From: Eledone cirrhosa | Taxonomy: Eukaryota | Length of the DNA stretch: 64,000 nt | Assembly: GCA_964016885.1 (NCBI GenBank) | Contig: OZ024743.1 | Location: 321,532,001 to 321,596,000, forward strand | Reading direction: 5' to 3' | Shown: piece by piece, positions 16,871-49,310 of the stretch | How positions within the stretch are numbered: the stretch's first letter is position 1 | Layout of the letters: each line of letters opens with the position of its first letter | Notes under the pieces: model-generated | The model's database searches: none | Told to the model about the DNA's origin: nothing | What the model saw: only the letters and a program-made list of their open reading frames with translations | Translations under genes and position numbers: made by a program

Positions 16871-16909
16871 TTGTGTTGAAGTGGAGCTACACAGCAACAT
16901 TGAGCTGAA

Positions 16910-19900: not shown

Positions 19901-22900
19901 GGAGCCACACAGCAACATGGTGTTGAAGTGGAGCCACACAGCGCAAAATTGTGTTTAATAGAGCCACATAGCAGCATTGTCCTGAAGTGGAACCACACAG
20001 CAACATTGAGCTGAAGTGGAGCTACACAGCAACATTGTGTTGAAGTGGAGCTACACAGCAACATTGTGCTGAAGTGGAGCTACACAGCAACATTGTGCTG
20101 AAGTGAATCACACAGCAACATTGTGTTGAAGTGGAGTCACACGGCAATATTGTATTGACGTGGAGCCATGCAGCAACATTCTGCTGGAGTGGAGCTACAC
20201 AGCAACATTGTGCTCAAGTGGAGCTACACAGCAACATTGTGCTGAAGTGGAGTCACACAGCAACATTGTGTTGAAGTGGAGCTACACAGCAACATTGTGC
20301 TGAAGTGGAACCACACAGCAACATTGTGTTGAAGTGGTGCTACACAGCAACATCGTGTTGAAGTGGACCCACACAGCAACATTGTGCTGAAGTGGAACCA
20401 CACAGCAACATTGTGTTGAAGTGGAGCCACACAGCAACATTGTGTTGAAGGGGAGCCACACAGCAACATTGTGTTGAAGTGGACCCACACAGCAACATTG
20501 TGTTGAAGTGGAGCCACACAGCAACATTGTGCTGAAGTGGAGCCACACAGCAACATTGTGTTGAAGTGGTGTCACACAAAAACATTGTGTTGAAGTGGAC
20601 CCACACAGCAACATTGTGCTGAAGTGGAACCACACAGCAACATTGTGTTGAAGTGGAGCCACACAGCAACATTGTGTTGAAGGGGAGCCACACAGCAACA
20701 TTGTGTTGAAGTGGACCCACACAGCAACATTGTGTTGAAGTGGAGCCACACAGCAACATTGTGTTGAAGTGGAGCCACACAGCAACATTGTGCTGAAGTG
20801 GACCCACACAGCAACATTGTGTTGAAGTGGAGCCACACAGCAACATTGTGTTGAAGTGGAGCCACACAGCAACATTGTGCTGAAGTGGAGCCACATAGCA
20901 ACATTGTCCTGATGTCGAGCCACACAGCAACATTTTGTTGAAGTGGAGCCACACAGCAACATTGTGTTGAAGTGGATCCACACAGCAACATTGTGCTGAA
21001 GTGGAGCCACACAGCAACATTGTGTTGAAGTGGAGCCACACAGCAACATTGTGTTGAAGTGGAGCCACACAGCAACATTGTGTTGAAGTGGAGCCACACA
21101 GCAACATGGTGTTGAAGTGGAGCCACTCAGCGCAAAATTGTGTTTAAGTAGAGCCACATAGCAGCATTGTCCTGAAGTGGAACCACACAGCAACATTGTG
21201 CTGAAGTGGAGCTACACAGCAACATTCTGCTGAAGTGGAGCTACACAGCAACATTGTGCTGAAGTGGAGTCACACAGCAACATTGCGTTGAAGTGGAGTC
21301 ACACGGCAATATTGTGTTGACGTGGAGCCATGCAGCAACATTCTGCTGGAGTGGAGCTACACAGCAACATTGTGCTGAAGTGGAGCTACACAGCAACATT
21401 GTGCTGAAGTGGAGTCACACAGCAACATTGTGTTGAAGTGGAGCTACACAGCAACATTGTGCTGAAGTGGAGCCACACAGCAACATTGTGTTGAAGTGGT
21501 GCTACACAGCAACATTGTGTTGAAGTGGACCCACACAGCAACATTGTGCTGAAGTGGAACCACACAGCAACATTGTGTTGAAGTGGTGCTACACAGCAAC
21601 ATTGTGTTGAAGTGGACCCACACAGCAGCATTGTCCTGAAGTGGAACCAAACAGCAACATTGTGTTGAAGTGGTGCTACACAGCAACATTGTGTTGAAGT
21701 GGAGCCACACAGCAACACTGTGCTGAAGTGGAGCCACACAGCAACATTGTGCTGAAGTCGAGCCACATAGCAACACTGTGCTGAAATGGAGCCACATAGC
21801 AACATTGTGCTGAAGTGGAGCCACATATCAATATCGTTTTGAAGTGGAGCCACACAGCAACATTGTGCTGAAGTGGAGTCACACAGCAACATTGTGTTGA
21901 AGTGGAGCTACACAGCAACATTGTGCTGAAGTGGAACCACACAGCAACATTGTGTTGAAGTGGTGCTACACAGCAACATTGTGTTGAAGTGGACCCACAC
22001 AGCAACATTGTGCTGAAGTGGAACCACACAGCAACATTGTGTTGAAGTGGATCCACACAGCAACATTGTGTTGAAGGGGAGCCACACAGCAACATTGTGT
22101 TGAAGTGGACCCACACAGCAACATTGTGTTGAAGTGGAGCTACACAGCAACATTGTGCTGAAGTGGAGCTACATAGCAACATTGTGCTGAAGTGGAGTCA
22201 CACAGCAACATTGTGTTGAAGTGGAGTCACACGGCAATATTGTGTTGACGTGGAGCCACACAGCAACATTCTGCTGGAGTGGAGCTACACAGCAACATTG
22301 TGCTGAAGTGGAGCTACACAGCAACATTGTGCTGAAGTGGAGTCACACAGCAACATTGTGCTGAAGTGGACCCACACAGCAATATTGTGTTGAAGTGGAG
22401 CGACATAGCAACATTGTGCTGAAGTGGAGCCACATAGCAACATTGTGCTGAAGTGGAGCCACACAGCAACATTGTGTTGAAGTGGGGCCACATAGCAACA
22501 TTGTCCTGAAGTGGAGCCACACAGCAACATTGTGTTGAAGTGGAACCACAAAGCAACATCGTGTTGAAGTGGAGCCACACAGCAACATTGTGTTGAAGTG
22601 GAGCCACACAGCATCATTGTGCTGAAGTGGTCCCACATGGCATCATTGTGTTGAAGGGGAGCCACACAGCAACATTGTGCTGAAGTGGAGCCACACAGCA
22701 ACATTGTGCTGAAGTGGAGCCACATAGCAACATTGTGTTGAAGTGGACCCACACAGCAATATTGTGTTGAATTGGAGCGACATAGCAACATTGTGCTGAA
22801 GTGGAGCAACATAGCAACATTGTGCTGAAGTGGAGCTACACAGCAACATTGTGCTGAAGTGGAGTCACACAGCAACATTGTGTTGAAGTGGAGACACACG

Positions 22901-25900
22901 GCAATATTGTGTTGACGTGGCGCCATGCAGCAACATTCTGTTGGAGTGGAGCTACACAGCAACATTGTGCTGAAGTGGAGCTACACAGCAACATTGTGCT
23001 GAAGTGGAGTCACACAGCAACATTGTGTTGAAGTGGAGCTACACAGCAACATTGTGCTGAAGTGGAACCACACAGCAACATTATGCTGAAGTGGAACCAC
23101 ACAGCAACATTGTGTTGAAGTGGACCCACACAGCAACATTGTGCTGAAGAGGAACCACACAGCAACATTGTGTTGAAGTGGATCCACACAGCAACATTGT
23201 GCTGAAGTGGACCCACACGGCAATATTGTGTTGAAGTGGAGCGACATAGCAACATTGTGCTGAAATGGAGACACATAGCAACATTGTGCTGAAGTGGAGC
23301 CACACAGCAACATTGTGTTGAAGTGGAGCCACACAGCAACATTGTGTTGAAGTGGAGCCACACAGCAACATTGTGTTGAAGTGGAGCCACACAGCAACAT
23401 TGTGATGAAGTGGATCCACACAGCAACATTGTGCTGAAGTGGAGCCACACAGCAACATTGTGTTGAAGTGGAGCCACACAGCAAAATTGTGTTGAAGTGG
23501 AGCCACACAGCAACATTGTGTTGAAGTGGAGCCACACAGCAACATGGTGTTGAAGTGGAGCCACACAGCGCAAAATTGTGTTTAAGTAGAGCCACATAGC
23601 AGCATTGTCCTGAAGTGGAACCACACAGCAACATTGTGCTGAAGTGGAGATACACAGCAACATTGTGTTGAAGTGGAGCTACACAGCAACATTGTGCTGA
23701 AGTGGAGCTACACAGCAACATTGTGCTGAAGTGGAGTCACACAGCAACATTGTGTTGAAGTGGAGTCACACGGCAATATTGTGTTGACGTGGAGCCATGC
23801 AGCAACATTCTGCTGGAGTGGAGCTACACAGCAACATTGTGCTGAAGTGGAGCTACACAGCAACATTGTGCTAAAGTGGAGTCACACAGCAACATTGTGT
23901 TGAAGTGGAGCTACACAGCAACATTGTGCTGAAGTGGAACCACACAGCAACATTGTGTTGAAGTGGTGCTACACAGCAACATTGTGTTGAAGTGGACCCA
24001 CACAGCAGCATTGTCCTGAAGTGGAACCACACAGCAACATTGTGCTGAAGTGGAGCTACACAGAAACATTGTGTTGAAGTGGAGCTACACAGCAACATTG
24101 TGCTGAAGTGGAGCTACACAGCAACATTGTGCTGAAGTGGAGTCACACAGCAACATTGTGTTGAAGTGGAGCTACACAGCAACATTGAGCTGAAGTGGAA
24201 CCAAACAGCAACATTGTGTTGAAGTGGTGCTACACAGCAACATTGTGTTGAAGTGGAGCCACACAGCAACACTGTGCTGAAGTGGAGCCACACAGCAACA
24301 TTGTGCTGAAGTCGAGCCTCATAGCAACACTGTGTTGAAATGGAGCCACATAGCAACATTGTGCTGAAGTGGAGCCACATATCAATATCGTTTTGAAGTG
24401 GAGCCACACAGCAACATTGTGCTGAAGTGGAGCCACATAGCAACATTGTCCTGATGTCGAGTCACACAGCAACATTTTGTTGAAGTGGAGCCACACAGCA
24501 ACATTGTGTTGAAGTGGAGCCACACAGCAACATTGTGTTGAAGTGGATCCACACAGCAACATTGTGCTGAAGTGGAGCCACACAGCAACATTGTGTTGAA
24601 GTGGAGCCACACAGCAACATTGTGTTGAAGTGGAGCCACACAACAACATTGTGTTGAAGTGGAGCCACACAGCAACATGGTGTTGAAGTGGAGCCACACA
24701 GCGCAAAATTGTGTTTAATAGAGCCACATAGCAGCATTGTCCTGAAGTGGAACCACACAGCAACATTGAGCTGAAGTGGAGCTACACAGCAACATTGTGT
24801 TGAAGTGGAGCTACACAGCAACATTGTGCTGAAGTGGAGCTACACAGCAACATTGTGCTGAAGTGAATCACACAGCAACATTGTGTTGAAGTGGAGTCAC
24901 ACGGCAATATTGTATTGACGTGGAGCCATGCAGCAACATTCTGCTGGAGTGGAGCTACACAGCAACATTGTGCTCAAGTGGAGCTACACAGCAACATTGT
25001 GCTGAAGTGGAGTCACACAGCAACATTGTGTTGAAGTGGAGCTACACAGCAACATTGTGCTGAAGTGGAACCACACAGCAACATTGTGTTGAAGTGGTGC
25101 TACACAGCAACATCGTGTTGAAGTGGACCCACACAGCAACATTGTGCTGAAGTGGAACCACACAGCAACATTGTGTTGAAGTGGAGCCACACAGCAACAT
25201 TGTGTTGAAGGGGAGCCACACAGCAACATTGTGTTGAAGTGGACCCACACAGCAACATTGTGTTGAAGTGGAGCCACACAGCAACATTGTGCTGAAGTGG
25301 AGCCACACAGCAACATTGTGTTGAAGTGGTGTCACACAAAAACATTGTGTTGAAGTGGACCCACACAGCAACATTGTGCTGAAGTGGAACCACACAGCAA
25401 CATTGTGTTGAAGTGGAGCCACACAGCAACATTGTGTTGAAGGGGAGCCACACAGCAACATTGTGTTGAAGTGGACCCACACAGCAACATTGTGTTGAAG
25501 TGGAGCCACACAGCAACATTGTGTTGAAGTGGAGCCACACAGCAACATTGTGCTGAAGTGGACCCACACAGCAACATTGTGTTGAAGTGGAGCCACACAG
25601 CAACATTGTGTTGAAGTGGAGCCACACAGCAACATTGTGCTGAAGTGGAGCCACATAGCAACATTGTCCTGATGTCGAGCCACACAGCAACATTTTGTTG
25701 AAGTGGAGCCACACAGCAACATTGTGTTGAAGTGGATCCACACAGCAACATTGTGCTGAAGTGGAGCCACACAGCAACATTGTGTTGAAGTGGAGCCACA
25801 CAGCAACATTGTGTTGAAGTGGAGCCACACAGCAACATTGTGTTGAAGTGGAGCCACACAGCAACATGGTGTTGAAGTGGAGCCACTCAGCGCAAAATTG

Positions 25901-26330
25901 TGTTTAAGTAGAGCCACATAGCAGCATTGTCCTGAAGTGGAACCACACAGCAACATTGTGCTGAAGTGGAGCTACACAGCAACATTCTGCTGAAGTGGAG
26001 CTACACAGCAACATTGTGCTGAAGTGGAGTCACACAGCAACATTGCGTTGAAGTGGAGTCACACGGCAATATTGTGTTGACGTGGAGCCATGCAGCAACA
26101 TTCTGCTGGAGTGGAGCTACACAGCAACATTGTGCTGAAGTGGAGCTACACAGCAACATTGTGCTGAAGTGGAGTCACACAGCAACATTGTGTTGAAGTG
26201 GAGCTACACAGCAACATTGTGCTGAAGTGGAGCCACACAGCAACATTGTGTTGAAGTGGTGCTACACAGCAACATTGTGTTGAAGTGGACCCACACAGCA
26301 ACATTGTGCTGAAGTGGAACCACACTGCAA
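16910..26330 (+). repeat. Tandem duplication, unit 4731-4760 bp (163-164 monomers + 4 bp)
   Basis: Offsets 4731 (17177/21908, 17554/22285) and 4760 (19354/24114, 20282/25042, 21386/26146), with identical or near-identical translations. Confidence 0.93.
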
Positions 26331-28049
26331 CATTGTGTTGAAGTGGAGCCACACAGCAACATTGTGTTGAAGGGGAGCCACACAGCAACATTGTGTTGAA
26401 GTGGACCCACACAGCAACATTGTGTTGAAGTGGAGCCACACAGCAACATTGTGCTGAAGTGGAGCCACACAGCAACATTGTGTTGAAGTGGTGCCACACA
26501 AAAACATTGTGTTGAAGTGGACCCACACAGCAACATTGTGCTGAAGTGGAACCACACAGCAACATTGTGTTGAAGTGGAGCCACACAGCAACATTGTGTT
26601 GAAGGGGAGCCACACAGCAACATTGTGTTGATGTGGAGCCACATGCCATCATTGTGTTGAATTGGAGCCACACAGCAACATTGTGCTGAAGTGGAGCCAC
26701 ACAGCAACATTGTGCTGAAGTCGAGCCACATAGCAACATTGTGTTGAAGTGGACCCACACAGCAATATTGTGTTGAAGTGGAAGGACATAGCAACATTGT
26801 GTTGAAGTGGAGCCACACAGCAACATTGTGTTGAAGTGGAGCCACACAGCAACATTGTGTTGAAGTGGAGCCACACAGCAACATTGTGTTTAAGTGGAAC
26901 CACACAGCAACATCGTGTTGAAGTGGAGCCACACAGCAATATTGTGTTGAAGTGGAGCCACACAGCAACATTCTGTTGAAGGGGAGCCACACAGCAACAT
27001 TGTGTTGAAGTGGAGCCACACAGCGCAAAATTGTGTTTAAGTAGAGCCACATAGCAGCATTGTCCTGAAATGGAACCACACAGCAACATTGTGCTGATGA
27101 AGTGGAGCTAAACAGCAACATTGTGTTGAAGTGGAGCTACACAGCAACATTGTGCTGAAGTGGAGCTACACAGCAACATTGTGCTGAAGTGGAGTCACAC
27201 AGCAACATTGTGTTGAAGTGGAGACACACGGCAATATTGTGTTGACGTGGCGCCATGCAGCAACATTGTGCTGAAGTGGAGTCACACAGCAACATTGTGT
27301 TGAAGTGGAGCTACACAGCAACATTGTGCTGAAGTGGAACCACACAGCAACATTGTGCTGAAGTGGAACTACACAGCAACATTGTGTTGAAGTGGACCCA
27401 CACAGCAACATTGTGCTGAAGTGGAACCACACAGCAACATTGTGTTGAAGTGGATCCACACAGCAACATTGTGTTGAAGGGGAGCCACACAGCAACATTG
27501 TGTTGAAGTGGAACCACACAGCAACATCGTGTTGAAGTGGAGCCACACAGCAATATTGTGTTGAAGTGGAGCCACACAGCAACATTCTGTTGAAGGGGAG
27601 CCACACAGCAACATTGTGTTGAAGTGGAGCCACACAGCGCAAAATTGTGTTTAAGTAGAGCCACATAGCAGCATTGTCCTGAAATGGAACCACACAGCAA
27701 CATTGTGCTGATGAAGTGGAGCTACACAGCAACATTGTGTTGAAGTGGAGCTACACAGCAACATTGTGCTGAAGTGGAGCTACACAGCAACATTGTGCTG
27801 AAGTGGAGTCACACAGCAACATTGTGTTGAAGTGGAGACACACGGCAATATTGTGTTGACGTGGCGCCATGCAGCAACATTCTGCTGGAGTGGAGCTACA
27901 CAGCAACATTGTGCTGAAGTGGAGCTACACAGCAACATTGTGCTGAAGTGGAGTCACACAGCAACATTGTGTTGAAGTGGAGCTACACAGCAACATTGTG
28001 CTGAAGTGGAACCACACAGCAACATTGTGCTGAAGTGGAACTACACAGC

Positions 28050-31000
28050 AACATTGTGTTGAGGTGGAGCCACACAGCAACATTGTGCTGAAGTGGAGCC
28101 ACACAGCAACATTGTGTTGAAGTGGTGCCACACAAAAACATTGTGTTGAAGTGGACCCACACAGCAACATTGTGCTGAAGTGGAACCACACAGCAACATT
28201 GTGTTGAAGTGGAGCCACACAGCAACATTGTGTTGAAGGGGAGCCACACAGCAACATTGTGTTGAAGTGGACCCACACATCAACATTGTGTTGAAGTGAA
28301 GCCACACAGCAACATTGTGTTGAAGTGGAGCCACACAGCAACATTGTGCTGAAGTGGAGCCACACAACAACATTGTGTTGAAGTGGAGCCACATGGCATC
28401 ATTGTGTTGAATTGGAGCCACACAGCAACATTGTGCTGAAGTGGATCCACACAGCAACATTGTGCTGAAGTCGAGCCACATAGCAACATTGTGTTGAAGT
28501 GGACCCACACAGCAATATTGTGTTGAAGTGGAGCGACATAGCAACAATGTGCTGAAGTGGAGCCACATAGCAACATTGTGCTGAAGTGGAGCCACACAGC
28601 AACATTCTGTTGAAGTGGAGCCACACAGCAACATTGTGCTGAAGTGGAGCCACATAGCAACATTGTCCTGATGTCGAGCCACACAGCAACATTTTGTTGA
28701 AGTGGAGCCACACAGCAACATTGTGTTGAAGTGGAGCCACACAGCAACGTTGTGTTGAAGTGGATCCACACAGCAACATTGTGCTGAAGTGGAGCCACAC
28801 AGCAACATTGTGTTGAAGTGGAGCCACACAGCAACATTGTGTTGAAGTGGAGCCACACAACAACGTGGTGTTGAAGTGGAGCCACACAGCAACATGGTGT
28901 TGAAGTGGAGCCACTCAGCGCAAAATTGTGTTTAAGTAGAGCCACATAGCAGCATTGTCCTGAAGTGGAACCACACAGCAACATTGTGCTGAAGTGGAGC
29001 TACACAGCAACATTGTGTTGAAGTGGAGCTACACAGCAACATTGTGCTGAAGTGGAGCTACACAGCAACATTGTGCTGAAGTGGAGTCACACAGCAACAT
29101 TGCGTTGAAGTGGAGTCACACGGCAATATTGTGTTGACGTGGAGCCATGCAGCAACATTCTGCTGGAGTGGAGCTACACAGCAACATTGTGCTGAAGTGG
29201 AGCTACACAGCAACATTGTGCTGAAGTGGAGTCACACAGCAACATTGTGTTGAAGTGGTGCTACACAGCAACATTGTGTTGAAGTGGACCCACACAGCAA
29301 CATTGTGCTGAAGTGGAACCACACAGCAACATTGTGTTGAAGTGGAGCCACACAGCAACATTGTGTTGAAGGGGAGCCACACAGCAACATTGTGTTGAAG
29401 TGGACCCACACAGCAACATTGTGTTGAAGTGGAGCCACACAGCAACATTGTGCTGAAGTGGAGCCACACAGCAACATTGTGTTGAAGTGGTGCCACACAA
29501 AAACAAGCTCTACTTCAGCACAATGTTGCTGTGTAGCCTCACTTCAACACGATGTTGCTGTGTGACTCCACTTCAGCACAATGTTGCTGTGTAGCTCCAC
29601 TTCAACACAATGTTGCTGTGTGGGTCCACGTCAACACAATATTGCTGTGTGACTCCACTTCAACACAATGTTGCTGTGTGACTCCACTTCAGCACAATGT
29701 TGCTGTGTAGCTCCACTTCAGCACAATGTTGCTGTGTTGCCTCCACTTCAACACAATGTTGCTATGTGGCTCCACTTCAACACGATGTCGCTGTGTGACT
29801 CCACTTCAACACAATGTTGCTGTGTGGCTCCCCTTCAGCACAATGTTGCTGTGTCGCTCCACTTCAACACAATGTTGCTGTGTGGATCCACTTCAACACA
29901 ATGTTGCTGTGTGGCTCCCCTTCAACACAATGTTGCTGTGTGTCTCCACTTCAACACGATGTTGATGTGTGGGTCCACTTCAACACAATGTTGCTGTGTG
30001 GCTCCACTTCAACACAATGTTGCTGTGTGGCTCCACTTCAACACGATGTTGCTGTGTGGCTCCACTTCAACACAATGTTGCTGTGTGGCTCCACTTCAAC
30101 ACAATGTTGCTGTGTGGGTCCACTCCAACACAATATTGCTGTGTGGCTCCACTTCAACACAATGTTGCTGTGTGGCTCCACTTCAACACGATGTTGCTGT
30201 GTGGCTCTACTTCAACACAATGTTGCTGTGTGGCTCCACTTCAACACAATGTTGCTGTGTGACTCCACTTCAGCACAATGTTGCTGTGTAGCTCCACTTC
30301 AGCACAATGTTGCTGTGTAGCTCCACTCCAGCAGAATGTTGCTGCATGGCTCCATGTCAACACAATATTGCCGTGTGACTCCACTTCAACACAATGTTGC
30401 TGTGTGACTCCACTTCAGCACAATGTTGCTGTGTAGCTCCACTTCAGCACAATGTTGCTGTGTAGCTCCACTTCAACACAATGTTGCTGTGTAGCTCCAC
30501 TTCAGCACAATGTTGCTGTGTGGTTCCAATTCAGGACAATGCTGCTATGTGGCTCTACTTAAACACAATTTTGCGCTGTGTGGCTCCACATCAACACCAT
30601 GTTGCTGTGTGGCTCCACTTCAACACAATGTTGCTATGTGGCTCCACTTCAACACAATGTTGCTGTGTGGCTCCACTTCAACACAATGTTGCTGTGTGGC
30701 TCCACTTCAGCACAATGTTGCTGTGTGGATCCACTTCAACACAATGTTGCTGTGTGGCTCCACTTCAACACAATGTTGCTGTGTGGCTCCACTTCAGCAC
30801 AATGTTGCTATGTGGCTCCATTTCAGCACAATGTTGCTATGTCGCTCCACTTCAACACAATATTGCTGTGTGGGTCCACTTCAACACAATGTTGCTATGT
30901 GGCTCGACTTCAGCACAATGTTGCTGTGTGGTTCCACTTCAGCACAGTGTTGCTGTGTGGATCCACTTCAACACAATGTTGCTGTGTAGCACCACTTCAA

Positions 31001-34000
31001 CACAATGTTGCTGTGAGGTTCCACTTCAGCACAATGTTGCTGTGTAGCTCCACTTCAACACAATGTTGCTGTGTGACTCCACTTCAGCACAATGTTGCTG
31101 TGTAGCTCCACTTCAGCACAATGTTGCTGTGTAGCTCCACTTCAACACAATGTTGCTCTGTAGCTCCACTTCAGCACAATGTTGCTGTGTGGTTCCACTT
31201 CAGGACAATGCTGCTGTGTGGGTCCACTTCAACACAATCTTGCTGTGTAGCACCACTTCAACACAATGTTGCTGTGTGGTTCCACTTCAGCACAATGTTG
31301 CTGTGTAGCTCCACTTCAACACAATGTTGCTGTGTGACTCCACTTCAGCACAGTGTTGCTGTGTAGCTCCACTTCAGCACAATGTTGCTGTGTAGCTCCA
31401 CTCCAGCAGAATGTTGCTGCATGGCTCCACGTCAACACAATATTGCCGTGTGACTCCACTTCAACACAGTGTTGCTGTGTGACTCCACTTCAGCACAATG
31501 TTGCTGTGTAGCTCCACTTCAGCACAATGTTGCTGTGTAGCTCCACTTCAACACAATGTTGCTGTGTAGCTCCACTTCAGCACAATGTTGCTGTGTGGTT
31601 CCACTTCAGGACAATGCTGCTATGTGGCTCTACTTAAACACAATTTTGCGCTGTGTGGCTCCACTTCAACACCATGTTGCTTTGTGGCTCCACTTCAACA
31701 CAATGTTGCTGTGTGGCTCCACTTCAACACAATGTTGCTGTGTGGCTCCACTTCAACACAATGTTGCTGTGTGGCTCCACTTCAGCATAACGTTGCTGTG
31801 TGGATCCACTTCAACACAATGTTGCTGTGTAGCTCCACTTCAGCACAATGTTGCTGTGTAGCTCCACTTCAACAAAATGTTGCTGTGTAGCTCGACATCA
31901 GGACAATGTTGCTATGTGGCTCCACTTCAGCACAATGTTGCTGTGTGGCTCCACTTCAACACAATGTTGCTGTGTGATTCCACTTCAGCACAATGTTGCT
32001 ATGTGGCTCCATTTCAGCACAATGTTGCTATGTCGCTCCACTTCATCAGCACAATGTTGCTGTGTGGTTCCATTTCAGGACAATGCTGCGATGTGGCTCT
32101 ACTTAAACACAATTTTGCGCTGTGTGGCTCCACTTCAACACAATGTTGCTGTGTGGCTCCCCTTCAACAGAGTGTTGCTGTGTGGGTCCACTTCAACACA
32201 ATATTGCTGTGTGGCTCCACTTCAACACGATGTTGCTGTGTGGTTCCACTTCAACACAATGTTGCTGTGTGGCTCCACTTCAACACAATGTTGCTGTGTG
32301 GCTCCACTTCAACACAATGTTGCTGTGTGGCTTCACTTCAACACAATGTTGCTATGTCGCTCCACTTCAACACAATATTGCTGTGTGGGTCCACTTCAAC
32401 ACAATGTTGCTATGTGGCTCGACTTCAGCACAATGTTGCTGTGTGGCTCCACTTCAGCACAATGTTGCTGTGTGGCTCCAATTCAACACAATGATGCCAT
32501 GTGGCTCCACATCAACACAATGTTGCTGTGTGGCTCACCTTCAACACAATGTTGCTGTGTGGCTCCACTTCAACACAATGTTGCTGTGTGGTTCCACTTC
32601 AGCACAATGTTGCTGTGTGGGTCCACTTCAACACAATGTTTTTGTGTGGCACCACTTCAACACAATGTTGCAGTGTGGCTCCACTTCAGCACAATGTTGC
32701 TGTGTGGCTCCACTTCAACACAATGTTGCTGTGTGGGTCCACTTCAACACAATGTTGCTGTGTGGCTCCCCTTCAACACAATGTTGCTGTGTGGCTCCAC
32801 TTCAACACAATGTTGCTGTGTGGTTCCACTTCAGCACAATGTTGCTGTGTGGGTCCACTTCAACACAATGTTGCTGTGTAGCACCACTTCAACACAATGT
32901 TGCTGTGTGACTCCACTTCAGCACAATGTTGCTGTGTAGCTCCACTTCAGCACAATGTTGCTGTGTAGCTCCACTCCAGCAGAATGTTGCTGCATGGCTC
33001 CACGTCAACACAATATTGCCGTGTGACTCCACTTCAACGCAATGTTGCTGTGTGACTCCACTTCAGCACAATGTTGCTGTGTAGCTCCACTTCAGCACAA
33101 TGTTGCTGTGTAGCTCCACTTCAACACAATGTTGCTGTGTAGCTCCACTTCAGCAGAATGTTGCTGTGTGGTTCCACTTCAGGACGATGCTGCTATGTGG
33201 CTCTACTTAAACACAATTTTGCGCTGAGTGGCTCCACTTCAACACCATGTTGCTGTGTGGCTCCACTTCAACACCACGTTGCTGTGTGGCTCCACTTCAA
33301 CACAATTTTGCTGTGTGGCTCCACTTCAACACAATGTTGCTGTGTGGCTCCACTTCAGCACAATGTTGCTGTGTGGATCCACTTCAACACAATGTTGCTG
33401 TGTGGCTCCACTTCAACACAATGTTGCTGTGTGGCTCCACTTCAACAAAATGTTGCTGTGTGGCTCGACATCAGGACAATGTTGCTATGTGGCTCCACTT
33501 CAGCACAATGTTGCTGTGTGGCTCCACTTCAACAGAATGTTGCTGTGTGGCTCCACTTCAGCACAATGTTGCTATGTGGCTCCACTTCAGCACATTGTTG
33601 CTATGTCGCTCCACTTCAACACAATATTGCTGTGTGGGTCCACTTCAACACAATGTTGCTATGTGGCTCGACTTCAGCACAATGTTGCTGTGTGGCTCCA
33701 CTTCAGCACAATGTTGCTGTGTGGCTCCAATTCAACACAATGATGCCATGTGGCTCCACTTCAACACAATGTTGTTGTGTGGCTCCACTTCAGCACAATG
33801 TTGCTGTGTGGCTCCACTTCAACACAATGTTGCTGTGTGGCTCCACTTCAACACAATGTTGATGTGTGGGTCCACTTCAACACAATGTTGCTGTGTGGCT
33901 CCCCTTCAACACAATGTTGCTGTGTGGGTCCACTTCAACACAATGTTGCTGTGTGGTTCCACTTCAGCACAATGTTGCTGTGTGGGTCCACTTCAACACA

Positions 34001-34090
34001 ATGTTTTTGTGTGGCACCACTTCAACACAATGTTTCTGTGTGGCTCCACTTCAGCACAATGTTGCTGTGTGGCTCCACCTCAACACAATA
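28050..34090. repeat. Long inverted repeat: arms ~28050-29505 and ~32637-34090 (~1.45 kb)
   Basis: Mirror ORFs whose coordinates sum to 62142 (28280..28984- / 33158..33862+; 28399..28914- / 33228..33743+). Markers GAGGTGG at 28061 and CCACCTC ending at 34081 also pair. Confidence 0.9.
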
Positions 34091-36524
34091 TTGCCGTGTG
34101 TCTCCACTTCAACACAATGTTGCTGTGTGGTTCCACTTCAGCACAATGTTGCTGTGTAGCTCCACTTCAGCACAATGTTGTTGTGTAGCTCCACTTCAAC
34201 ACAATGTTGCTGTGTAGCTCCACTTCAGCACAATGTTGCTGTGTGGTTCCACTTCAGGACAATGCTGCTATGTGGCTCTACTTAAACACAATTTTGCACT
34301 GTGTGGCTCCACTTCAACACCATGTTGCTGTGTGGCTCCACTTCAACACAATGTTGCTGTGTGGCTCCACTTCAACACAGTGTTGCTGTGTGGCTCCACT
34401 TCAACACAATGTTGCTGTGTGGCTCCACTTCAGCACAATGTTGCTGTGTGGATCCACTTCAACACAATGTTGCTGTGTGGCTCCACTTCAACACAATGTT
34501 GCTGTGTGGCTCCACTTCAACAAAATGTTGCTGTGTGGCTCCACTTCAGCACAATGTTGCTATGTGGCTCCATTTCAGCACAATGTTGCTGTGTGGCTCC
34601 ACTTCAACACAATGTTGCTGTGTGGCTCCACTTCAGCACAATGTTGCTATGTGGCTCCATTTCAGCACAATGTTGCTATGTCGCTCCACTTCAACACAAT
34701 ATTGCTGTGTGGGTCCACTTCAACACAATGTTGCTACGTGGCTCGACTTCAGCACAATGTTCCTGTGTGGCTCCACTTCAACACGATGTTGCTGTGTGGC
34801 TCCCCTTCAACACAATGTTGCTATGTGGATCGACTTCAGCACAATGTTGCTGTGTGGCTCCACTTCAACACAATATTGCTGTGTGTCTCCACTTCAACAC
34901 AATGTTGCTGTGTGGCTCCCCTTCAACACAATGTTGCTGTGTGGATCCACTTCAACACAATGTTGCTGTGTGGTTCCACTTCAGCACAATGTTGCTGTGT
35001 GGGTCCACTTCAACACAATGTTGCTGTGTAGTTCCACTTCAGCACAATGTTGCTGTGTGGTTCCACTTCAGCACAATGTTGCTGTGTAGCTCCACTTCAA
35101 CACAATGTTGCTGTGTGACTCCACTTCAGCACAATGTTGCTGTGTGACTCCACTTCAACACAATGATGCCATGTGGCTCCACTTCAGCACAATGATGCTG
35201 TGTGGCTCCACTTCAACACAATGTTGCTGTGTGGCACCACTTCAGCACAATGTTGCTATGTCGCTCCACTTCAACACAATATTGCTGTGTGGCTCCACTT
35301 CAACACAATGTGGCTGTGTGGGTCCACTTCAACACAATGTTGCTGTGTGACTCCCCTTCAACACAATGTTGCTGTGTGGATCCACTTCAACACAATGTTG
35401 CTGTGTGGCTCCCCTTCAACACAATGTTGCTATGTGGATCGACTTCAGCACAATGTTGCTGTGTGGCTCCACTTCAGCACAATGATGCTGTGTGGCTCCA
35501 CTTCAACACAATGTTGCTGTGTGGCTCCACTTCAGCACAATGTTGCTGTGTGGCTCCACTTCAACACAATGTTGCTGTGTGGCTCCACTTCAGCACAATG
35601 TTGCTATGTGGCTCCACTTCAGCACAATGTTGCTATGTCGCTCCACTTCAACACAATATTGCTGTGTGTCTCCACTTCAACACAATGTTGCTGTGTGGCT
35701 CCCCTTCAACACAATGTTGCTGTGTGGATCCACTTCAACACAATGTTGCTGTGTGGTTCCACTTCAGCACAATGTTGCTGTGTGGGTCCACTTCAACACA
35801 ATGTTGCTGTGTAGTTCCACTTCAGCACAATGTTGCTGTGTGGTTCCACTTCAGCACAATGTTGCTGTGTAGCTCCACTTCAACACAATGTTGCTGTGTG
35901 ACTCCACTTCAGCACAATGTTGCTGTGTAGCTCCACTTCAGCACAATGTTGCTGTGTAGCTCCACTCCAGCAGAATGTTGCTGCATGGCGCCACGTCAAC
36001 ACAATATTGCCGTGTGTCTCCACTTCAACACAATGTTGCTGTGTGACTCCACTTCAGCACAATGTTGCTGTGTAGCTCCACTTCAGCACAATGTTGCTGT
36101 GTAGCTCCACTTCAACACAATGTTGCTGTGTAGCTCCACTTCATCAGCACAATGTTGCTGTGTGGTTCCATTTCAGGACAATGCTGCTATGTGGCTCTAC
36201 TTAAACACAATTTTGCGCTGTGTGGCTCCACTTCAACACAATGTTGCTGTGTGGCTCCACTTCAACACAATATTGCTGTGTGGGTCCACTTCAACACAAT
36301 GTTGCTATGTGGCTCGACTTCAGCACAATGATGCTGTGTGGCTCCACTTCAGCACAATGTTGCTGTGTGGCTCCAATTCAACACAATGATGTCATGTGGC
36401 TCCACTTCAACACAATATTGCTGTGTGGCTCCCCTTCAACACAATGTTGCTGTGTGGCTCCACTTCAGCACAATGTTGCTGTGTGGCTCCACTTCAACAC
36501 AATGTTGCTGTGTGGGTCCACTTC
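29507..36524 (-). repeat. Inverted satellite block (~7.0 kb, ~241 monomers)
   Basis: Monomers read CACAATGTTGCTGTGTGGCTCCACTTCAA on the + strand from GCTCTACTTCAGCA (29507) to GGGTCCACTTC (36524). The ORF track flips from - to + strand over the same interval. Confidence 0.98.
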
Positions 36525-39469
36525 GACATAGCAACAGTGTGCTGAAGTGGAGCCACATAGCAACATTGTGCTGAAGTGGAGCCACACAGCAACATTCTGT
36601 TGAAGTGGAGCCACACAGCAACATTGTGCTGAAGTGGAGCCACATAGCAACATTGTCCTGATGTCGAGCCACACAGCAACATTGTGTTGAAGTGGAACCA
36701 CACAGCAACATTGTGTTGAAGTGGACCCACACAGCAATATTGTGTTGAAGTGGAGCCACACAACAACATTGTGTTGAAGTGGACCTACACAGCAACATTG
36801 TGATGAAGTGGAGCCAAACAGCACAACATTGTTTGGAGTAGAGCCACATAGCAGCATTGTCCTGAATTGGAACCACACAGCAACATTGTGCTGAAGTGGA
36901 GCTACACAGCAACATTGTGTTGAAGTGGAGCTACACAGCAACATTGTGCTGAAGTGGAGCTACACAGCAACATTGTGCTGAAGTGGAGTCACACAGCAAC
37001 ATTGTGTTGAAGTGGAGTCACACGGCAATATTGTGTTGACGTGGAGCCATGCAGCAACATTCTGCTGGAGTGGAGCTACACAGCAACATTGTGCTGAAGT
37101 GGAGCTACACAGCAACATTGTGCTGAAGTGGAGTCACACAGCAACATTGTGTTGAAGTGGAGCTACACAGCAACATTGTGCTGAAGTGGAACCACACAGC
37201 AACATTGTGTTGAAGTGGTGCTACACAGCAACATTGTGTTGAAGTGGACCCACACACCAACATTGTGCTGAAGTGGAACCACACAGCAACATTGTGTTGA
37301 AGTGGAGCTACACAGCAACATTGTGTTGAAGTGGACCCACACAGCAACATTGTGTTGAAGTGGAGCCACACAGCAACATTGTGCTGAAGTGGAGACACAC
37401 AGCAACATTGTGTTGAAGTGGTGCCACACAAAAACATTGTGTTGAAGTGGACCCACACAGCAACATTGTGCTGAAGTGGACCCACACAGCAACATTGTGT
37501 TGAAGTGGAGCCACATAGCAACATTGTGCTGAAGTGGAGCCACACAGCAACATTGTGTTGAAGTGGAGCCACATGGCATCATTGTGTTGAATTGGAGCCA
37601 CACAGCAGCATTGTGTTGAAGTGGAGCCACACAGCAACATCGTGTTGAAGTGGAGCCACACAGCAACATTGTGTTGAAGTGGAGCCACACAGCAATATTG
37701 TGTTGGAGTGGACCCACACAGCAACATTGTGCTGAAGTGGATCGACATAGCAACATTGTGCTGAAGTGGATCGACATAGCAACATTGTGCTGAAGTGGAG
37801 CCAAATAGCAACATTGTGCTGAAGGCGAGCCACACAGCAACATTGTGTTGAAGTGGAGCCACACAGCAACATTGTGATGAAGTGGAGCCACTCAGCAACA
37901 TTGTGCTGAAGGGGAGCTACACAGCAACATTGTGTTGCAGTGGATACCACACAGCAACATTGTGCTGAAGTGGAGCCACACAGCAACATTGTGTTGAAGT
38001 GGATCCACACAGCAACATTGTGCTGAAGTGGAGCCACACAGCAACATTGTGTTGAAGTGGAGCCACACAGCAACATTGTGTTGAAGTGGAACCACACAGC
38101 AACATTGTGCTGAAGTGGAACCACACAGCAACATTGTGTTGAAGTGGAGCTACACAGCAACATTGTGTTGAAGTGGACCCACACAGCAACATTGTGTTGA
38201 AGTGGAGCCACACAGCAACATTGTGCTGAAGTGGAGCCACACAGCAACATTGTGTTGAAGTGGTGCCACACAAAAACATTGTGTTGAAGTGGACCCACAC
38301 AGCAACATTGTGCTGAAGTGGAACCACACAGCAACATTGTGTTGAAGGGGAGCCACACAGCAACATTGTGTTGAAGTGGACCCACACAGCAACATTGTGT
38401 TGAAGTGGAGCCACATAGCAACATTGTGCTGAAGTGGAGCCACACAGCAACATTGTGTTGAAGTGGAGCCACATGGCATCATTGTGTTGAATTGGAGCCA
38501 CACAGCAACATTGTGTTGAAGTGGAGCCACACATCAACATTGTGTTGAAGTGGACCCGCACAGCAACGTTGTGTTGAAGTGGAGCCACACAGCAACATTG
38601 TGTTGAAGTGGAGCCACACAGAAACATTGTGTTGAAGTGGAGCCACACAGCAACATCGTGTTGAAGTGGAGCCACACAGCAACATTGTGTTGAAGTGGAG
38701 CCACACAGCAATATTGTGTTGGAGTGGACCCACACAGCAACATTGTGTTGAAGTGGAGCCAGACATCAACATTGTGTTGAAGTGGAGCCACACAGCAACA
38801 TTGTGTTGAAGTGGAGCCACACAGCAACAGTGTGTTGAAGTGGAGCCACACAGCAACATCGTGTTGAAGTGGAGCCACACAGCAACATTGTGTTGAAGTG
38901 GAGCCACACAGAAACATTGTGTTGAAGTGGACCCACACATCAACATCGTGTTGAAGTGGAGACACACAGCAACATTGTGTTGAAGGGGAGCCACACAGCA
39001 ACATTGTGTTGAAGTGGATCCACACAGCAACATTGTGTTGAAGTGGAGCGACACAGCAACATTGTGCTGAAGGGGAGCCACACAGCAACATTGTGTTGAA
39101 GTGGAGTCACACAGCGACATCGTGTTGAAGTGGAGCCACATAGCAACATTGTGCTGAAGTGGAGGCCACACAGCAACATTGTGCTGAAGTGGAGCTACAC
39201 AGCAACTTTGTGCTGAAGTGGAGTCACACAGCAACATTGTGTTGAAGTGGAGTCACACAGCAATATTGTGTTGACGTGGACCCACACAGCAACATTGTGT
39301 TGAAGTGGAGCTACACAGCAACATTGTGCTGGAGTGGAGCTACACAGCAACATTGTGCTGAAGTGGAGTCACACAGCAACATTGTGTTGAAGTGAGGCTA
39401 CACAGCAACATTGTGCTGAAGTGGAGCCACACAGCAACATTGTGTTGAAATGGTGCCACACAGCAACAT

Positions 39470-42400
39470 TGTGCTGAAGTGGAGCTACACAGCAACATTG
39501 TGTTGAAGTGGAGCTACACAGCAACATTGTGCTGAAGTGGAGCTACACAGCAACATTGTGCTGAAGTGGAGTCACACAGCAACATTGTGTTGAAGTGGAG
39601 TCACACGGCAATATTGTGTTGACGTGGAGCCATGCAGCAACATTCTGCTGGAGTGGATCTACACAGCAACATTGTGCTGAAGTGGAGCTACACAGCAACA
39701 TTGTGCTGAAGTGGAGTCACACAGCAACATTGTGTTGAAGTGGAGCTACACAGCAACATTGTGCTGAAGTGGAACCACACAGCAACATTGTGTTGAAGTG
39801 GTGCTACACAGCAACATTGTGTTGAAGTGGACCCACACAGCAACATTGTGCTGAAGTGGAACCACACAGCAACATTGTGTTGAAGTGGAGCTACACAGCA
39901 ACATTGTGTTGAAGTGGACCCACACAGCAACATTGTGTTGAAGTGGAGCCACACAGCAACATTGTGCTGAAGTGGAGCCACACAGCAACATTGTGTTGAA
40001 GTGGTGCCACACAAAAACATTGTGTTGAAGTGGACCCACACAGCAACATTGTGCTGAAGTGGAACCACACAGCAACATTGTGTTGAAGGGGAGCCACACA
40101 GCAACATTGTGTTGAAGTGGACCCACACAGCAACATTGTGTTGAAGTGGAGCCACATAGCAACATTGTGCTGAAGTGGAGCCACACAGCAACATTGTGTT
40201 GAAGTGGAGCCACATGGCATCATTGTGTTGAATTGGAGCCACACAGCAACATTGTGTTGAAGTGGAGCCACACATCAACATTGTGTTGAAGTGGTCGCGC
40301 ACAGCAACGTTGTGTTGAAGTGGAGCCACACAGCAACATTGTGTTGAAGTGGAGCCACACAACAACAGTGTGTTGAAGTGGAGCCACACAGCAACATCGT
40401 GTTGAAGTGGAGCCACACAGCAACATTGTGTTGAAGTGGAGCCACACAGCAATATTGTGTTGGAGTGGACCCACACAGCAACATTGTGTTGAAGTGGAGC
40501 CATACAGCAACATGGTGTTGAAGTGGACCCACACATCAACATCGTGTTGAAGTGGAGACACACAGCAACATTGTGTTGAAGGGGAGCCACACAGCAACAT
40601 TGTGTTGAAGTGGATCCACACAGCAACATTGTGTTGAAGTGGAGCGACACAGCAACATTGTGCTGAAGGGGAGCCACACAGCAACATTGTGTTGAAGTGG
40701 AGTCACACAGCGACATCGTGTTGAAGTGGAGCCACATAGCAACATTGTGTTGAAGTGGAGGCCACACAGCAACATTGTGCTGAAGTGGAGCTACACAGCA
40801 ACATTGTGCTGAAGTGGAGTCACACAGCAACATTGTGTTGAAGTGGAGTCACACAGCAATATTGTGTTGACGTGGACCCACACAGCAACATTGTGTTGAA
40901 GTGGAGCTACACAGCAACATTGTGCTGGAGTGGAGCTACACAGCAACATTGTGCTGAAGTGGAGTCACACAGCAACATTGTGTTTAAGTGAGGCTACACA
41001 GCAACATTGTGCTGAAGTGGAGCCACACAGCAACATTGTGTTGAAATGGTGCCACACAGCAACATTGTGTTGAAGTGGAACCACACAGCAACATTGTGTT
41101 GAAGTGGAGCCACACAGCAACATTGTGTTGAAGGGGAGCCACACAGCAACATTGTGTTGAAGTGGGGCCACACAGCAACATTGTGTTGAAGTGGACCCAC
41201 ACAGCAACATTGTGCTGAAGTGGAGCCACATAGCAACATTGTCCTGAAGTCGAGCCACACAGCAACATTGTGTTGAAGTGGAACCACACAGCAACATTGT
41301 GTTGAAGTGGACCCACACAGCAATATTGTGTTGAAGTGGAGCCACACAACAACATTGTGTTGAAGTGGAGCTACACAGCAACATTGTTTTGAAGTGGAAC
41401 CACACAGCAATATTGTGTTGAAGTCGAGCCACACAGCAACATTGTGTTGAAGTGGACCCACACAGCAACGTTGTGTTGAAGTGGAGTCACACAGCGCAAC
41501 ATTGTGTTGAAGTAGAGCCACATAGCAGCATTGTCCTGAAGTGGAACCACACAGCAACATTAGTGCTGAAGTGGAGCCACATAGCAACATTGTCCTGATG
41601 TGGAGCCACATAGCAACATTGTCCTGAAGTGGAGCTACACAGCAACATTGCGCTGAAGTGGAGCTACACATCAACATTGTGCTGAAGTGGAGTCACACAG
41701 CAACAATGTGTTGAAGTGGAGCTTCACAGCAACATTGTGCTGAAGTGGAGCCACACAGCAACATTGTGTTGAAGTGGTGCTACACAGCAACATTGTGCTG
41801 AAGTGGACCCACACACCAACATTGTGCTGAAGTGGAGCCACACAGCAACATTGTGTTGAAGTGGAGCCACACAGCAACATTGTGTTGAAGTGGAGCCACA
41901 CAGCAATATTGTGTTGAAGTGGACCCACACAGCAACATTGTGTTGAAGTGGAGCCACACAGCAACATTGTGTTGAAGTGGAGCCACACAGCAACATTGTG
42001 CTGAAGTGGAGCCACACAGCAACATTGTGTTGAAGTGGAGCCACACAGCAACATTGTGTTGAAGTGGAGCCACACAGCAACATCGTGTTGAAGTGGAGCC
42101 ACACAGCAACATTGTGTTGAAGTGAAGCCACACAGCAACATTGTGTTGAAGTGGACCCACACAGCAACATCGTGTTGAAGTGGAGACACACAGCAACATT
42201 GTGTTGAAGGGGAGCCACACAGCAACATTGTGTTGAAGTGGAGCCACACAGCAACATTGTGTTGAAGTGGAGCGACACAGCAACATTGTGTTGAAGTGGA
42301 GGCCACACAGTAACATTGTGCTGAAGTGGAGCTACACAGCAACATTGTGTTGAAGTGGAGCCACACAGAAAAATTGTGTTGAAGTGGACCCACACAGCAA

Positions 42401-45400
42401 CATTGTGTTGAAGTGGGGCCACACAGCAACATTGTGTTGAAGTGGACCCACACAGCAACATTGTGTTGAAGTGGAGACACACAGCAACATTGTGTTGAAG
42501 TGGAGCCACACAGCAACATTGTGCTGAAGGGGAGCCACACAGCAACATTGTGTTGAAGTGGATCCACACAGCAACATTGTGTTGAAGTGGACCCACATAG
42601 CAACATTGTGTTGAAGAGGAGCCACACAGCAACATTGTTTTGAAGTGGAGCCACACAGCAATATTGTGTTGAAGTCGAGCCACACAGCAACATTGTGTTG
42701 AAGTGGACCCACACAGCAACGTTGTGTTGAAGTGGAGTCACACAGCGCAACATTGTGTTGAAGTAGAGCCACATAGCAGCATTGTCCTGAAGTGGAACCA
42801 CACAGCAACATTAGTGCTGAAGTGGAGCCACATAGCAACATTGTCCTGAAGTGGAGCCACATAGCAACATTGTCCTGAAGTGGAGCTACACAGCAAAATT
42901 GCGCTGAAGTGGAGCTACACAGCAACATTGTGCTGAAGTGGAGTCACACAGCAACAATGTGTTGAAGTGGAGCTTCACAGCAACATTGTGCTGAAGTGGA
43001 TCCACACACCAACATTGTGCTGAAGTGGAGCCACACAGCAACATTGTGTTGAAGTGGAGCCACACAGCAACATTGTGTTGAAGTGGAGCCACACAGCAAC
43101 ATTGTGTTGAAGTGGAGCCACATAGCAACATTGTCCTGAAGTCGAGCCACACAGCAACATTTTGTTGAAGTGGAACCACACAGCAACATTGTGTTGAAGT
43201 GGAGCCACACAACAATATTGTGTTGAAGTCGACCCACACAGCAAAATTGTGTTGAAGTGGACCCACACAGAAACATTGTGCTGAAGTGGAACCACACAGC
43301 AACATTAGTGCTGAAGTGGAGCCACACAGCAACATTAGTGCTGAAGTGGAGCCACATAGCAACATTGTCCTGAAGGGGAGCCACACAGCAACATTGTGCT
43401 GAAGAGGAGCTACACAGCAACATTGTGCTGAAGTGGAGTCACACAGCAACATTGTGTTGAAGTGGAGCTTCACAGCAACATTGTGCTGAAGTGGTTCCAC
43501 ACAGCAACATTGTGTTGAAGTGGTGCCACACAGCAACATTGTGCTGAAGTGGACCCACACACCAACATTGTGCTGAAGTGGAGCCACACAGCAACATTGT
43601 GTTGAAGTGGAGCCACACAGCAACATTGTGTTGAAGTGGATCCACACAGCAACACTGTGCTGAAGTGGAGCCACACAGCAACATTGTGTTGAAGTGGAGC
43701 CACACAGCAACATTGTGCTGAAGCGGAGCCACTCAGCAATATTGTGTTGAAGTGGTGCCACACAGCAACATTGTGCTGAAGTGGACCCACACACCAACAT
43801 TGTGCTGAAGTGGGGCCACACAGCAACATTGTGTTGAAGTGGAGCCATACAGCAACATTGTGTTGAAGGGGAGCCACACAGCAACATTGTGTTGAAGTGG
43901 AGTCTCACAGCAACATTGTGTTGAAGTGGAGCCACACAGCAACATTGTGCTGAAGTTGAGCCACACAGCAACATTGTGTTCAGGTGGAGCCACACGGCAA
44001 CATTGTGTTGAAGTGGAGCCACACAGCAATATTGTGCTGAAGTGGAGCCACTCAGCAATATTGTGTTGAAGTGGTGCCACACAGCAACATTGTGCTGAAG
44101 TGGACCCACACACCAACATTGTGCTGAAGTGGGGCCACACAGCAACATTGTGTTGAAGTGGAGCCATACAGCAACATTGTGTTGAAGGGGAGCCACACAG
44201 CAACATTGTGTTGAAGTGGAGTCTCACAGCAACATTGTGTTGAAGTGGAGCCACACAGCAACATTGTGCTGAAGTTGAGCCACACAGCAACATTGTGTTC
44301 AGGTGGAGCCACACGGCAACATTGTGTTGAAGTGGAGCCACACAGCAATATTGTGTTCAAGTGGAGCCACACAGCAATATTGTGTTCAAGTGGAGCCACA
44401 TAGCAACATTGTGTTAAAGTGGACCCACACAGCAACATTGTGTTGAAGTGGAGCCACACATCAACATTGTGTTGAAGTGGAGCCACACAGCAACATTGTG
44501 TTGAAGTGGAGCCACATAGCAACATTGTGTTGAAGTGGAGCCACACAGCAACATTGTGTTGAAATGGTCCCACACAGCAACATTGTGCTGAAGTGGAGCT
44601 ACACAGCAACATTGTGTTGAAGTGGAGCTACACAGCAACATTGTGCTGAAGTGGAGCTACACAGCAACATTGTGCTGAAGTGGAGTCACACAGCAACATT
44701 GTGTTGAAGTGGAGTCACACGGCAATATTGTGTTGACGTGGAGCCATGCAGCAACATTCTGCTGGAGTGGATCTACACAGCAACATTGTGCTGAGGTGGA
44801 GCTACACAGCAACATTGTGCTGAAGTGGAGTCACACAGCAACATTGTGTTGAAGTGGAGCTACACAGCAACATTGTGCTGAAGTGGAACCACACAGCAAC
44901 ATTGTGTTGAAGTGGTGCTACACAGCAACATTGTGTTGAAGTGGACCCACACAGCAACATTGTGCTGAAGTGGAACCACACAGCAACATTGTGTTGAAGT
45001 GGAGCTACACAGCAACATTGTGTTGAAGTGGACCCACACAGCAACATTGTGCTGAAGTGGAGCCACACAGCAACATTGTGTTGAAGTGGTGCCACACAAA
45101 AACATTGTGTTGAAGTGGACCCACACAGCAACATTGTGCTGAAGTGGAACCACACAGCAACATTGTGTTGAAGGGGAGCCACACAGCAACATTGTGTTGA
45201 AGTGGACCCACACAGCAACATTGTGTTGAAGTGGAGCCACATAGCAACATTGTGCTGAAGTGGAGCCACACAGCAACATTGTGTTGAAGTGGAGCCACAT
45301 GGCATCATTGTGTTGAATTGGAGCCACACAGCAACATTGTGTTGAAGTGGAGCCACACATCAACATTGTGTTGAAGTGGACCCGCACAGCAACGTTGTGT

Positions 45401-48400: not shown

Positions 48401-49310
48401 GTGGAGCCACACAGCAACATTAGTGCTGAAGTGGAGCCACATAGCAACATTGTCCTGAAGGGGAGCCACACAGCAACATTGTGCTGAAGAGGAGCTACAC
48501 AGCAACATTGTGCTGAAGTGGAGTCACACAGCAACATTGTGTTGAAGTGGAGCTTCACAGCAACATTGTGCTGAAGTGGTTCCACACAGCAACATTGTGT
48601 TGAAGTGGTGCCACACAGCAACATTGTGCTGAAGTGGACCCACACACCAACATTGTGCTGAAGTGGAGCCACACAGCAACATTGTGTTGAAGTGGAGCCA
48701 CACAGCAACATTGTGTTGAAGTGGATCCACACAGCAACACTGTGCTGAAGTGGAGCCACACAGCAACATTGTGTTGAAGTGGAGCCACACAGCAACATTG
48801 TGCTGAAGTGGAGCCACTCAGCAATATTGTGTTGAAGTGGTGCCACACAGCAACATTGTGCTGAAGTGGACCCACACACCAACATTGTGCTGAAGTGGGG
48901 CCACACAGCAACATTGTGTTGAAGTGGAGCCATACAGCAACATTGTGTTGAAGGGGAGCCACACAGCAACATTGTGTTGAAGTGGAGTCTCACAGCAACA
49001 TTGTGTTGAAGTGGAGCCACACAGCAACATTGTGCTGAAGTTGAGCCACACAGCAACATTGTGTTCAGGTGGAGCCACACGGCAACATTGTGTTGAAGTG
49101 GAGCCACACAGCAATATTGTGTTCAAGTGGAGCCACACAGCAATATTGTGTTCAAGTGGAGCCACATAGCAACATTGTATTAAAGTGGACCCACACAGCA
49201 ACATTGTGTTGAAGTGGAGCCACACATCAACATTGTGTTGAAGTGGAGCCACACAGCAACATTGTGTTGAAGTGGAGCCACATAGCAACATTGTGTTGAA
49301 GTGGAGCCAC
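39470..49310 (+). repeat. Tandem duplication, unit ~5085-5114 bp
   Basis: Offsets 5114 (39688/44802) and 5085 (40220/45305, 40965/46050, 41671/46756, 42944/48029, 43439/48524). Confidence 0.92.
43730..44365 (+). repeat. Nested 319-bp (11-monomer) tandem duplication in one copy of the 5.1-kb unit
   Basis: The series CCACTCAG, GGTGCC, CACACCAAC, GGGGCC, GCCATAC, GGAGTCTC, GTTGAGCC, TTCAGG occurs twice (ORF ends 43733/44052) but only once in the 48.8-49.1 kb sister copy. Confidence 0.88.

Follow-up and report, generated by a model that had tools for sequence, protein, structure and literature searches.

The 64,000-bp stretch of Eledone cirrhosa DNA analysed here (assembly GCA_964016885.1, contig OZ024743.1, positions 321,532,001 to 321,596,000; hereafter the window, to which five-digit positions refer) consists throughout of a 29-bp tandem repeat, and 7,018 bp of this satellite, at 29507-36524, lie in reverse orientation. 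Our results support a genuine inversion in place, and we believe that it is best explained by two double-strand breaks after which the block was re-sealed in reverse by end-joining, a reading to which we give a probability of roughly 0.6. Two breaks 7 kb apart would have released the 7,018-bp piece, and classical or near-blunt end-joining would then have sealed it back reversed. At the left break 7 bases would have been trimmed and one base added; at the right break either an uncertain number of bases would have been lost or the break would have fallen beside an older patch boundary. The event seems to have been single and recent, since there is no further copy of either junction.

The window holds 2,203 copies of the repeat, on the forward strand outside the block, and belongs to an array that extends over 368 kb with 12,671 monomers (contig positions ~321,464,300-321,831,830) on a 379-Mb contig of the 3.0-Gb genome. 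The array edges, which we traced with an extra 100 kb to the left and 300 kb to the right of the window, give way on both sides to AT-rich non-array sequence, and the array itself contains no N. When an exact 31-nt unit pattern was compared with the whole genome, it gave 1,971 forward and 24 reverse matches. All 1,995 fall within the 368-kb array and all 24 reverse matches lie in the block, and by this test the satellite is therefore a single-locus array carrying one inversion. Strand switches at 29506/29507 and 36524/36525 bound the reversed block (reverse strand, ~241 monomers), which is made of the same repeat; GC skew and AT skew both flip sign across it, and it is the sole strand switch in the gap-free array. 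The initial annotation had placed an inversion at these very positions, and we found its junction letters as quoted. That the block measures exactly 242 times 29 bp is a coincidence, as its two ends fall on positions 18 and 27 of the unit and indels within it supply the difference.

At the left junction (29496-29519, forward strand), a broken A-rich variant monomer (29496-29505) is followed by an extra A at 29506 and then by the block, with 0 bp of homology. The right junction, at 36524/36525 (36512-36537, forward strand), displays 1 bp of perfect homology, an imperfect match at 4 of 5 positions and no insertion. The A at 29506 can alternatively be assigned to the inverted monomer, which on its own strand would then have a T, a variant present eight times elsewhere in the array, in which case the unexplained base moves to the right junction. 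Both junctions are singular: a 26-mer across the left one and a 24-mer across the right one each occur once in the 3.0-Gb genome, and every 31-mer across either junction occurs once in the array.

The left break can be restored to the base. We flipped the block back in silico and cut the array into monomers (within the block, actual position equals 66031 minus restored position), and scored continuity at a join as an excess, obtained by subtracting the two best one-sided matches from the best two-sided one, with random in-phase joins as nulls. The monomer at the left break belongs to an A-rich variant with ten intact copies, all inside the window. One of these opens an intact sister copy of the pre-inversion site at 26497-26786 (forward strand), and comparison with it after flipping back indicates that 7 bases, TTGTGTT (26507-26513 in the sister copy), have been replaced by the single A at 29506, just as had been proposed. 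Another such copy, also intact, lies in the block, at 32357-32646 (reverse strand; restored 33385-33674). Among ~2,190 copies, that at 26497 ranked first on both sides of the restored left join, at five and at eight monomers, and the in-block copy at restored 33385 gave the next-best two-sided sum. The excess of the restored join was 0 at five monomers, a score shared by 270 of 400 native positions and by none of 400 random joins, and again 0 at eight monomers (231 of 400 native positions, 0 of 399 random joins), so that on this side the restored order is clearly better than that of a random join. The break monomer is also the only one among the 12,671 with more than 2 bases missing, which is why we tie its net deletion of 6 bp to the break. 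The monomer order that the initial annotation had listed after the left join matches the restored one, except that one unit after the GGGG unit and before the next marked one was omitted. A rare marker monomer stands five units after the break monomer, the same spacing as in 3 of the window's 8 other such copies; in the remainder the distance is seven or nine units.

The 29-bp unit contains two short dyads with predicted stems (two intact stretches gave z -2.1 and -2.4), and single-stranded folding of 29409-29466 is better than that of shuffled sequences (z -2.1, with 5 of 200 shuffles equally good). We considered a hairpin-directed break, as a 6-bp hairpin is predicted in the sister copy with its 3' arm among the 7 bases lost, and rejected it as non-discriminating, given that stems span most of the monomer.

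Each end of the block resembles the flank that it meets after flipping back. In the restored block, 73% of the rare-word partners of the first 500-bp tile lie in 15000-29506 and none in 36525-50000, and the last two full 500-bp tiles have 67% and 79% of their partners in 36525-50000 and none in 15000-29506. This end-to-flank similarity, together with the continuity of the left join, supports the genuine inversion that had been claimed from the letters. Insertion of the block in reverse from elsewhere, either as a re-integrated circle or as an inverted duplication, would account for the failure of the right join in the continuity test (described below), but it is largely refuted by the left join and we consider it highly improbable. 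Joining flank directly to flank gave an excess of 12 at both five and eight monomers, which is in the random range, as opposed to 0 for the left flank joined to the flipped block, and closing the block as a circle gave 5 (five monomers) and 11 (eight monomers) rather than 0. Both block ends match the expected flank, a target-site duplication was looked for at the junctions and none was found, and there is no donor copy. Elsewhere in the array the block is copied in pieces of at most 1,439 bp (at 99.0%), so it is not an inverted duplication. The left flank (27600-28062) and the block (35793-36255 in actual coordinates) also share an identical stretch of 463 bp; should this copy be older than the inversion, the inversion would date to less than ~0.65% pairwise divergence (95% bound).

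Several observations weigh against the view that two breaks were simply re-sealed by end-joining. First, the right join is discontinuous and statistically like a random join. Both breakpoints had been described in the initial annotation as re-joinable at base resolution, and this is true of the left one only. On the right, flipping back restores the exact 29-bp phase, as had been stated, but the hybrid monomer so formed is of a type that occurs once among the 12,671 and nowhere else, and the monomer order around it resembles that of a random join. The excess was 13 at five monomers, a value this high at 1 of 400 native positions and in 103 of 400 random joins, and 14 at eight monomers (24 of 400 native positions, 305 of 399 random joins). 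The two sides of the join match different sister contexts, the block side those at 39372, 40968 and 46053, where another continuation follows, and the flank side those at 28508 and restored 32397. The context of the block's 29507 end is displayed with its usual continuation at 40515-41400 (forward strand; also 38831-39400 and 45600-46400), and that of the first monomers of the right flank at 28508-28681 (forward strand), with a second copy in the block (~33461-33634, reverse strand). Just outside the right junction, five monomers (36525-36671, forward strand, 147 bp) differ at one position from 28535-28681 and may be an older patch or a repair copy; beyond them the right flank changes to the context that usually follows the block end. 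Allowing for a skipped patch plus an offset, in a gap-tolerant test, brought no rescue of the join: its score was equalled by null joins in 100 cases of 250 and in 117 of 250, and a score as poor was found at 13 of 250 native positions. Higher-order landmarks near the join had seemed continuous by eye, and in the same gap-tolerant test they were no better than null joins.

The simple balanced two-cut model is thus supported at the left break only. The net loss of ~6 bp given in the initial annotation becomes a minimum rather than a measurement, because the right site is restored in phase only and its order is random-like. For the right break we regard two readings as about equally likely, namely that nothing was lost and the break fell beside an older patch boundary, or that whole monomers were lost and the phase was kept by chance; the likelihood ratio between them is 0.4-0.9 at five monomers and 1.9-3.7 at eight, and the phase would be kept by chance in 1-2 of 29 cases.

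The discontinuity of the right join would be accounted for by a template switch, in which a process like microhomology-mediated break-induced replication (MMBIR) or fork stalling and template switching (FoSTeS), or else an aborted strand invasion combined with polymerase-theta-type joining, inverted the block and copied the 147-bp patch at 36525-36671 from the sister at 28535-28681 or from its in-block sister. The right flank does open with five monomers that show one difference from 28537 and then resumes the usual continuation of the block end, the 4-of-5 imperfect match at the right junction is in line with such a switch, and the insertion of one base with the loss of seven is compatible with theta-type joining. 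However, MMBIR, FoSTeS and theta-mediated joining use 2-15 bp of perfect microhomology, whereas the perfect homology here is 0-1 bp and the 4-5-bp inverted homologies of the monomers were left unused. Moreover, the array is patchy anyway, with 24 of 400 native positions as discontinuous at eight monomers, the four block and flank ends carry no excess of private changes (0, 6, 3 and 1 per five monomers, compared with a block mean of 2.28), and no copy number was gained. On balance we consider a template switch unlikely, although it deserves more weight than any other alternative to the end-joined inversion. The same counts led us to reject hypermutation at the junctions, as they do not rise above the background of the block.

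Second, the junction homology fits end-joining without identifying the pathway. We scored it with sister copies standing in for the unbroken sites and with 20,000 simulated blunt joins as the null, of which 59% showed 0 bp, 22% showed 1 bp and 3.8% showed 4-5 bp, and 7-9% contained a window matching at 4 of 5 positions or better. Internal dyads offer every monomer an inverted homology of 4-5 bp, and neither junction uses one perfectly. With a perfect homology of 1 bp on the right, and of 0 bp plus one added base on the left, both junctions therefore look homology-independent, and the little or no homology that had been noted from the letters is borne out. The end-joining-like character proposed alongside it fits these values but is read from the junction letters, and 81% of random blunt joins would likewise have 0-1 bp; the imperfect 4-of-5 match at the right junction is a feature that chance would produce in 7-9%. 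Balanced two-break inversions made by non-homologous end-joining (NHEJ) show 0-1 bp of homology, few bases lost, one added and no duplication, and the inversion described here resembles them in all of these respects. It differs from them in that reciprocity is seen at one break only, and at the other a larger loss, or a patch copied from a template, may lie concealed.

The initial annotation had remarked that such joins arose even though homologous template is everywhere; this is no reason for surprise, as that template is all in direct orientation and is unable alone to invert a segment. Non-allelic homologous recombination (NAHR) between pre-existing inverted satellite copies is the usual route to large pericentromeric inversions flanked by inverted duplications, according to the available part of a recent report (10.64898/2026.07.22.740206), but in the array studied here there is no reverse exact unit-pattern copy outside the block, the junction homology is at most 1 bp, and recombination could not make the first strand switch in a one-directional array. 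Ectopic recombination is out because the surrounding homology consists of direct repeats and no other reverse copy exists, and we regard NAHR as the least probable of the alternatives.

Third, five monomers just inside the left break carry six differences from their best sister, compared with none in the five monomers outside it, and only 4% of array windows reach that number.

Finally, no junction-spanning piece was found among the matches listed in five of nine public runs, in a comparison that proved powerless. Three of these runs (X4, X5 and X6) consist of contigs from one sample, perhaps of another individual, X7 holds raw reads of a reduced-representation library, and X1 carries a different organism label. 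At the left junction, the depths of X4, X5 and X6 in the bin 29504-29510 (14.8, 13.1 and 25.4) are 2/7 of 51.9, 45.9 and 89, the depths of contigs whose match stops at 29505 and whose sequence runs on as an intact monomer, and 29506-29510 are uncovered. X7 contributed 1 read of 12.5 million to the queried region, away from the left junction. At the right junction, none of the matches listed from X4, X5, X6 and X1 crosses by more than 4 bases, and the one that reaches so far, record 26 of X6, fits ordinary monomer continuation with one mismatch. The comparison is powerless as words with 3-4 copies in the assembly have zero depth in X5 and X6; the share of words present in the runs (0.56-0.63) is close to the share of words with at least 50 copies (0.59), and the contigs appear to keep high-copy words only.

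Satellite arrays are hard to assemble, and together with the read comparison this leaves some room for an artefact, that is, a chimeric read, a graph mis-join or a somatic event caught in the consensus. We consider this very unlikely. The junction words are unique in the genome, so that there is no repeat from which a graph mis-join could have arisen, and of the two junctions one gives back the original site with all but 7 of its bases. Furthermore, the block ends are not mirrored in the flanks and no N gap is present. A fold-back is excluded by the monomer order, an ungapped test for it (best 63%) having been spoiled by indels. As a separate observation, six short contigs among the matches listed from X1 are at least 95% like the satellite, at 36490-36579, and a relative, diet or contamination could each explain them.

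Intra-array inversions of satellites form a known class to which the block belongs, and within it the block behaves like an end-joined inversion. The available portions of recent reports on human satellites describe a polymorphic inversion of 1.7 Mb in the active alpha-satellite array of chromosome 1 and more than 200 inversion breakpoints in HSat3 (HSat3B5) and beta satellite (10.1101/2021.07.12.452052), inversions in the inactive arrays of chromosomes 3, 16 and 20 (10.1101/2021.07.12.452052; 10.64898/2026.07.22.740206; 10.64898/2026.09.03.749043) and ~129 strand switches per haplotype of chromosome 9 (10.64898/2026.09.03.749043); strand switches are viewed there as stochastic by-products of array expansion (10.64898/2026.07.22.740206). 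As far as these portions go, the human inversions share with the present one a reversed segment in a homogeneous array and the same repeat family beside each switch, whereas the block is much smaller, at 7 kb, is the sole inversion of its array, consists of an unrelated 29-bp repeat and has one pre-break site that can be rebuilt. In Tribolium, the consulted parts of two reports describe satellite inversion segments, or macro-dyad symmetries, whose junctions are truncated monomers conserved in many copies (10.1101/2024.12.02.626372; PMC13081366). There, as here, abruptly truncated monomers of opposite orientation meet without intervening foreign sequence, but those junctions, from what is described, have been amplified to thousands of copies on many chromosomes, whereas each junction found here occurs once and both come from one event; the block is not an amplified dyad of the Tribolium type. 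In the literature searched, which left most subscription journals outside and in which supplements may hold breakpoints, we found no base-level rebuilding of a pre-break satellite site.

The surroundings of the block raise the question of how an inversion affects satellite turnover. Recent large duplications cover 42.6% of the array, and the block and its neighbourhood are without them, as are 11.7% of 7-kb windows. The longest duplicate-free run, 26321-42897, includes the block and is shortened to 13.6 kb by a 99.6% duplicate from 39949. The novelty of the block is 2.28, compared with 0.82 and 1.14 in the adjoining tiles, a level that 5.3% of 7-kb windows attain, as do 5 of the 53 tiles (the block included), and the best partner lies inside the block for only 11% of its windows. 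This evidence is suggestive only of a founding strand switch that was caught before amplification and that locally stalls satellite turnover, leaving a frozen island; because 5-12% of equal-sized windows look alike, we think such stalling rather improbable. If it were true, a single accident of end-joining would have set up a natural experiment that asks whether homogenisation depends on direct orientation. Stalling of homogenisation by an intra-satellite inversion was not found in the literature searched, again with most subscription journals outside its scope.

Elsewhere in the array there are signs of recent copying over long distances. Two pieces of 2,144 bp at 99.9% and 1,311 bp at 100% are shared between ~321,511,350-321,514,360 and ~321,735,200-321,740,550, lie 224-226 kb apart in the same orientation and are accompanied by five more pieces of 424-710 bp at distances of 229-241 kb. 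These copies look very recent and could reflect long-distance conversion, re-insertion of a circle or local misassembly. Monomer types of the far left end recur ~215 kb to the right, at ~321,681,500-321,699,000. Tandem duplications of 2-6.9 kb with 0-1 mismatches are found at 12651-16840 and 58538-64000 of the window and at ~321,682,570-321,696,280 of the contig, and point to either very recent unequal exchange or over-expansion in the assembly.

The array as a whole shows a one-sided gradient of divergence: monomers at the left end carry ~2.0 differences each from the consensus, and the figure drops to 1.24 at the right end, which looks as if the youngest expansion were at the right edge and not in the middle. 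Both edges (near 321,464,300 and at L035:5830-6150) fade into a few degenerate units resembling the 29-bp repeat; those at the right edge are ~70% like the main unit, and that stretch matched only the 368-kb array in the genome. Such units may represent the older seed from which the satellite grew. At a distance of 1.7 kb to the right of the array (L035:7587-8530), broken reading frames may correspond to the end of the reverse transcriptase and the endonuclease of a Penelope-like retrotransposon; a Pfam search at an E-value of 0.1 gave no match for either of the two frames.

Strand switches in satellites have been catalogued by the hundred, and the literature, in the portions available, says little on how the first one arises. 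In Tribolium the junctions are already amplified; here one event is seen in one array, with sister copies that still display the unbroken left site. As a single case with no sign of function, the block illustrates rather than tests the idea that end-joining makes the first inversions. Its near-blunt joins ignored the short inverted homologies on offer, and end-joining is thus favoured as a source of first inversions in one-directional satellite arrays.

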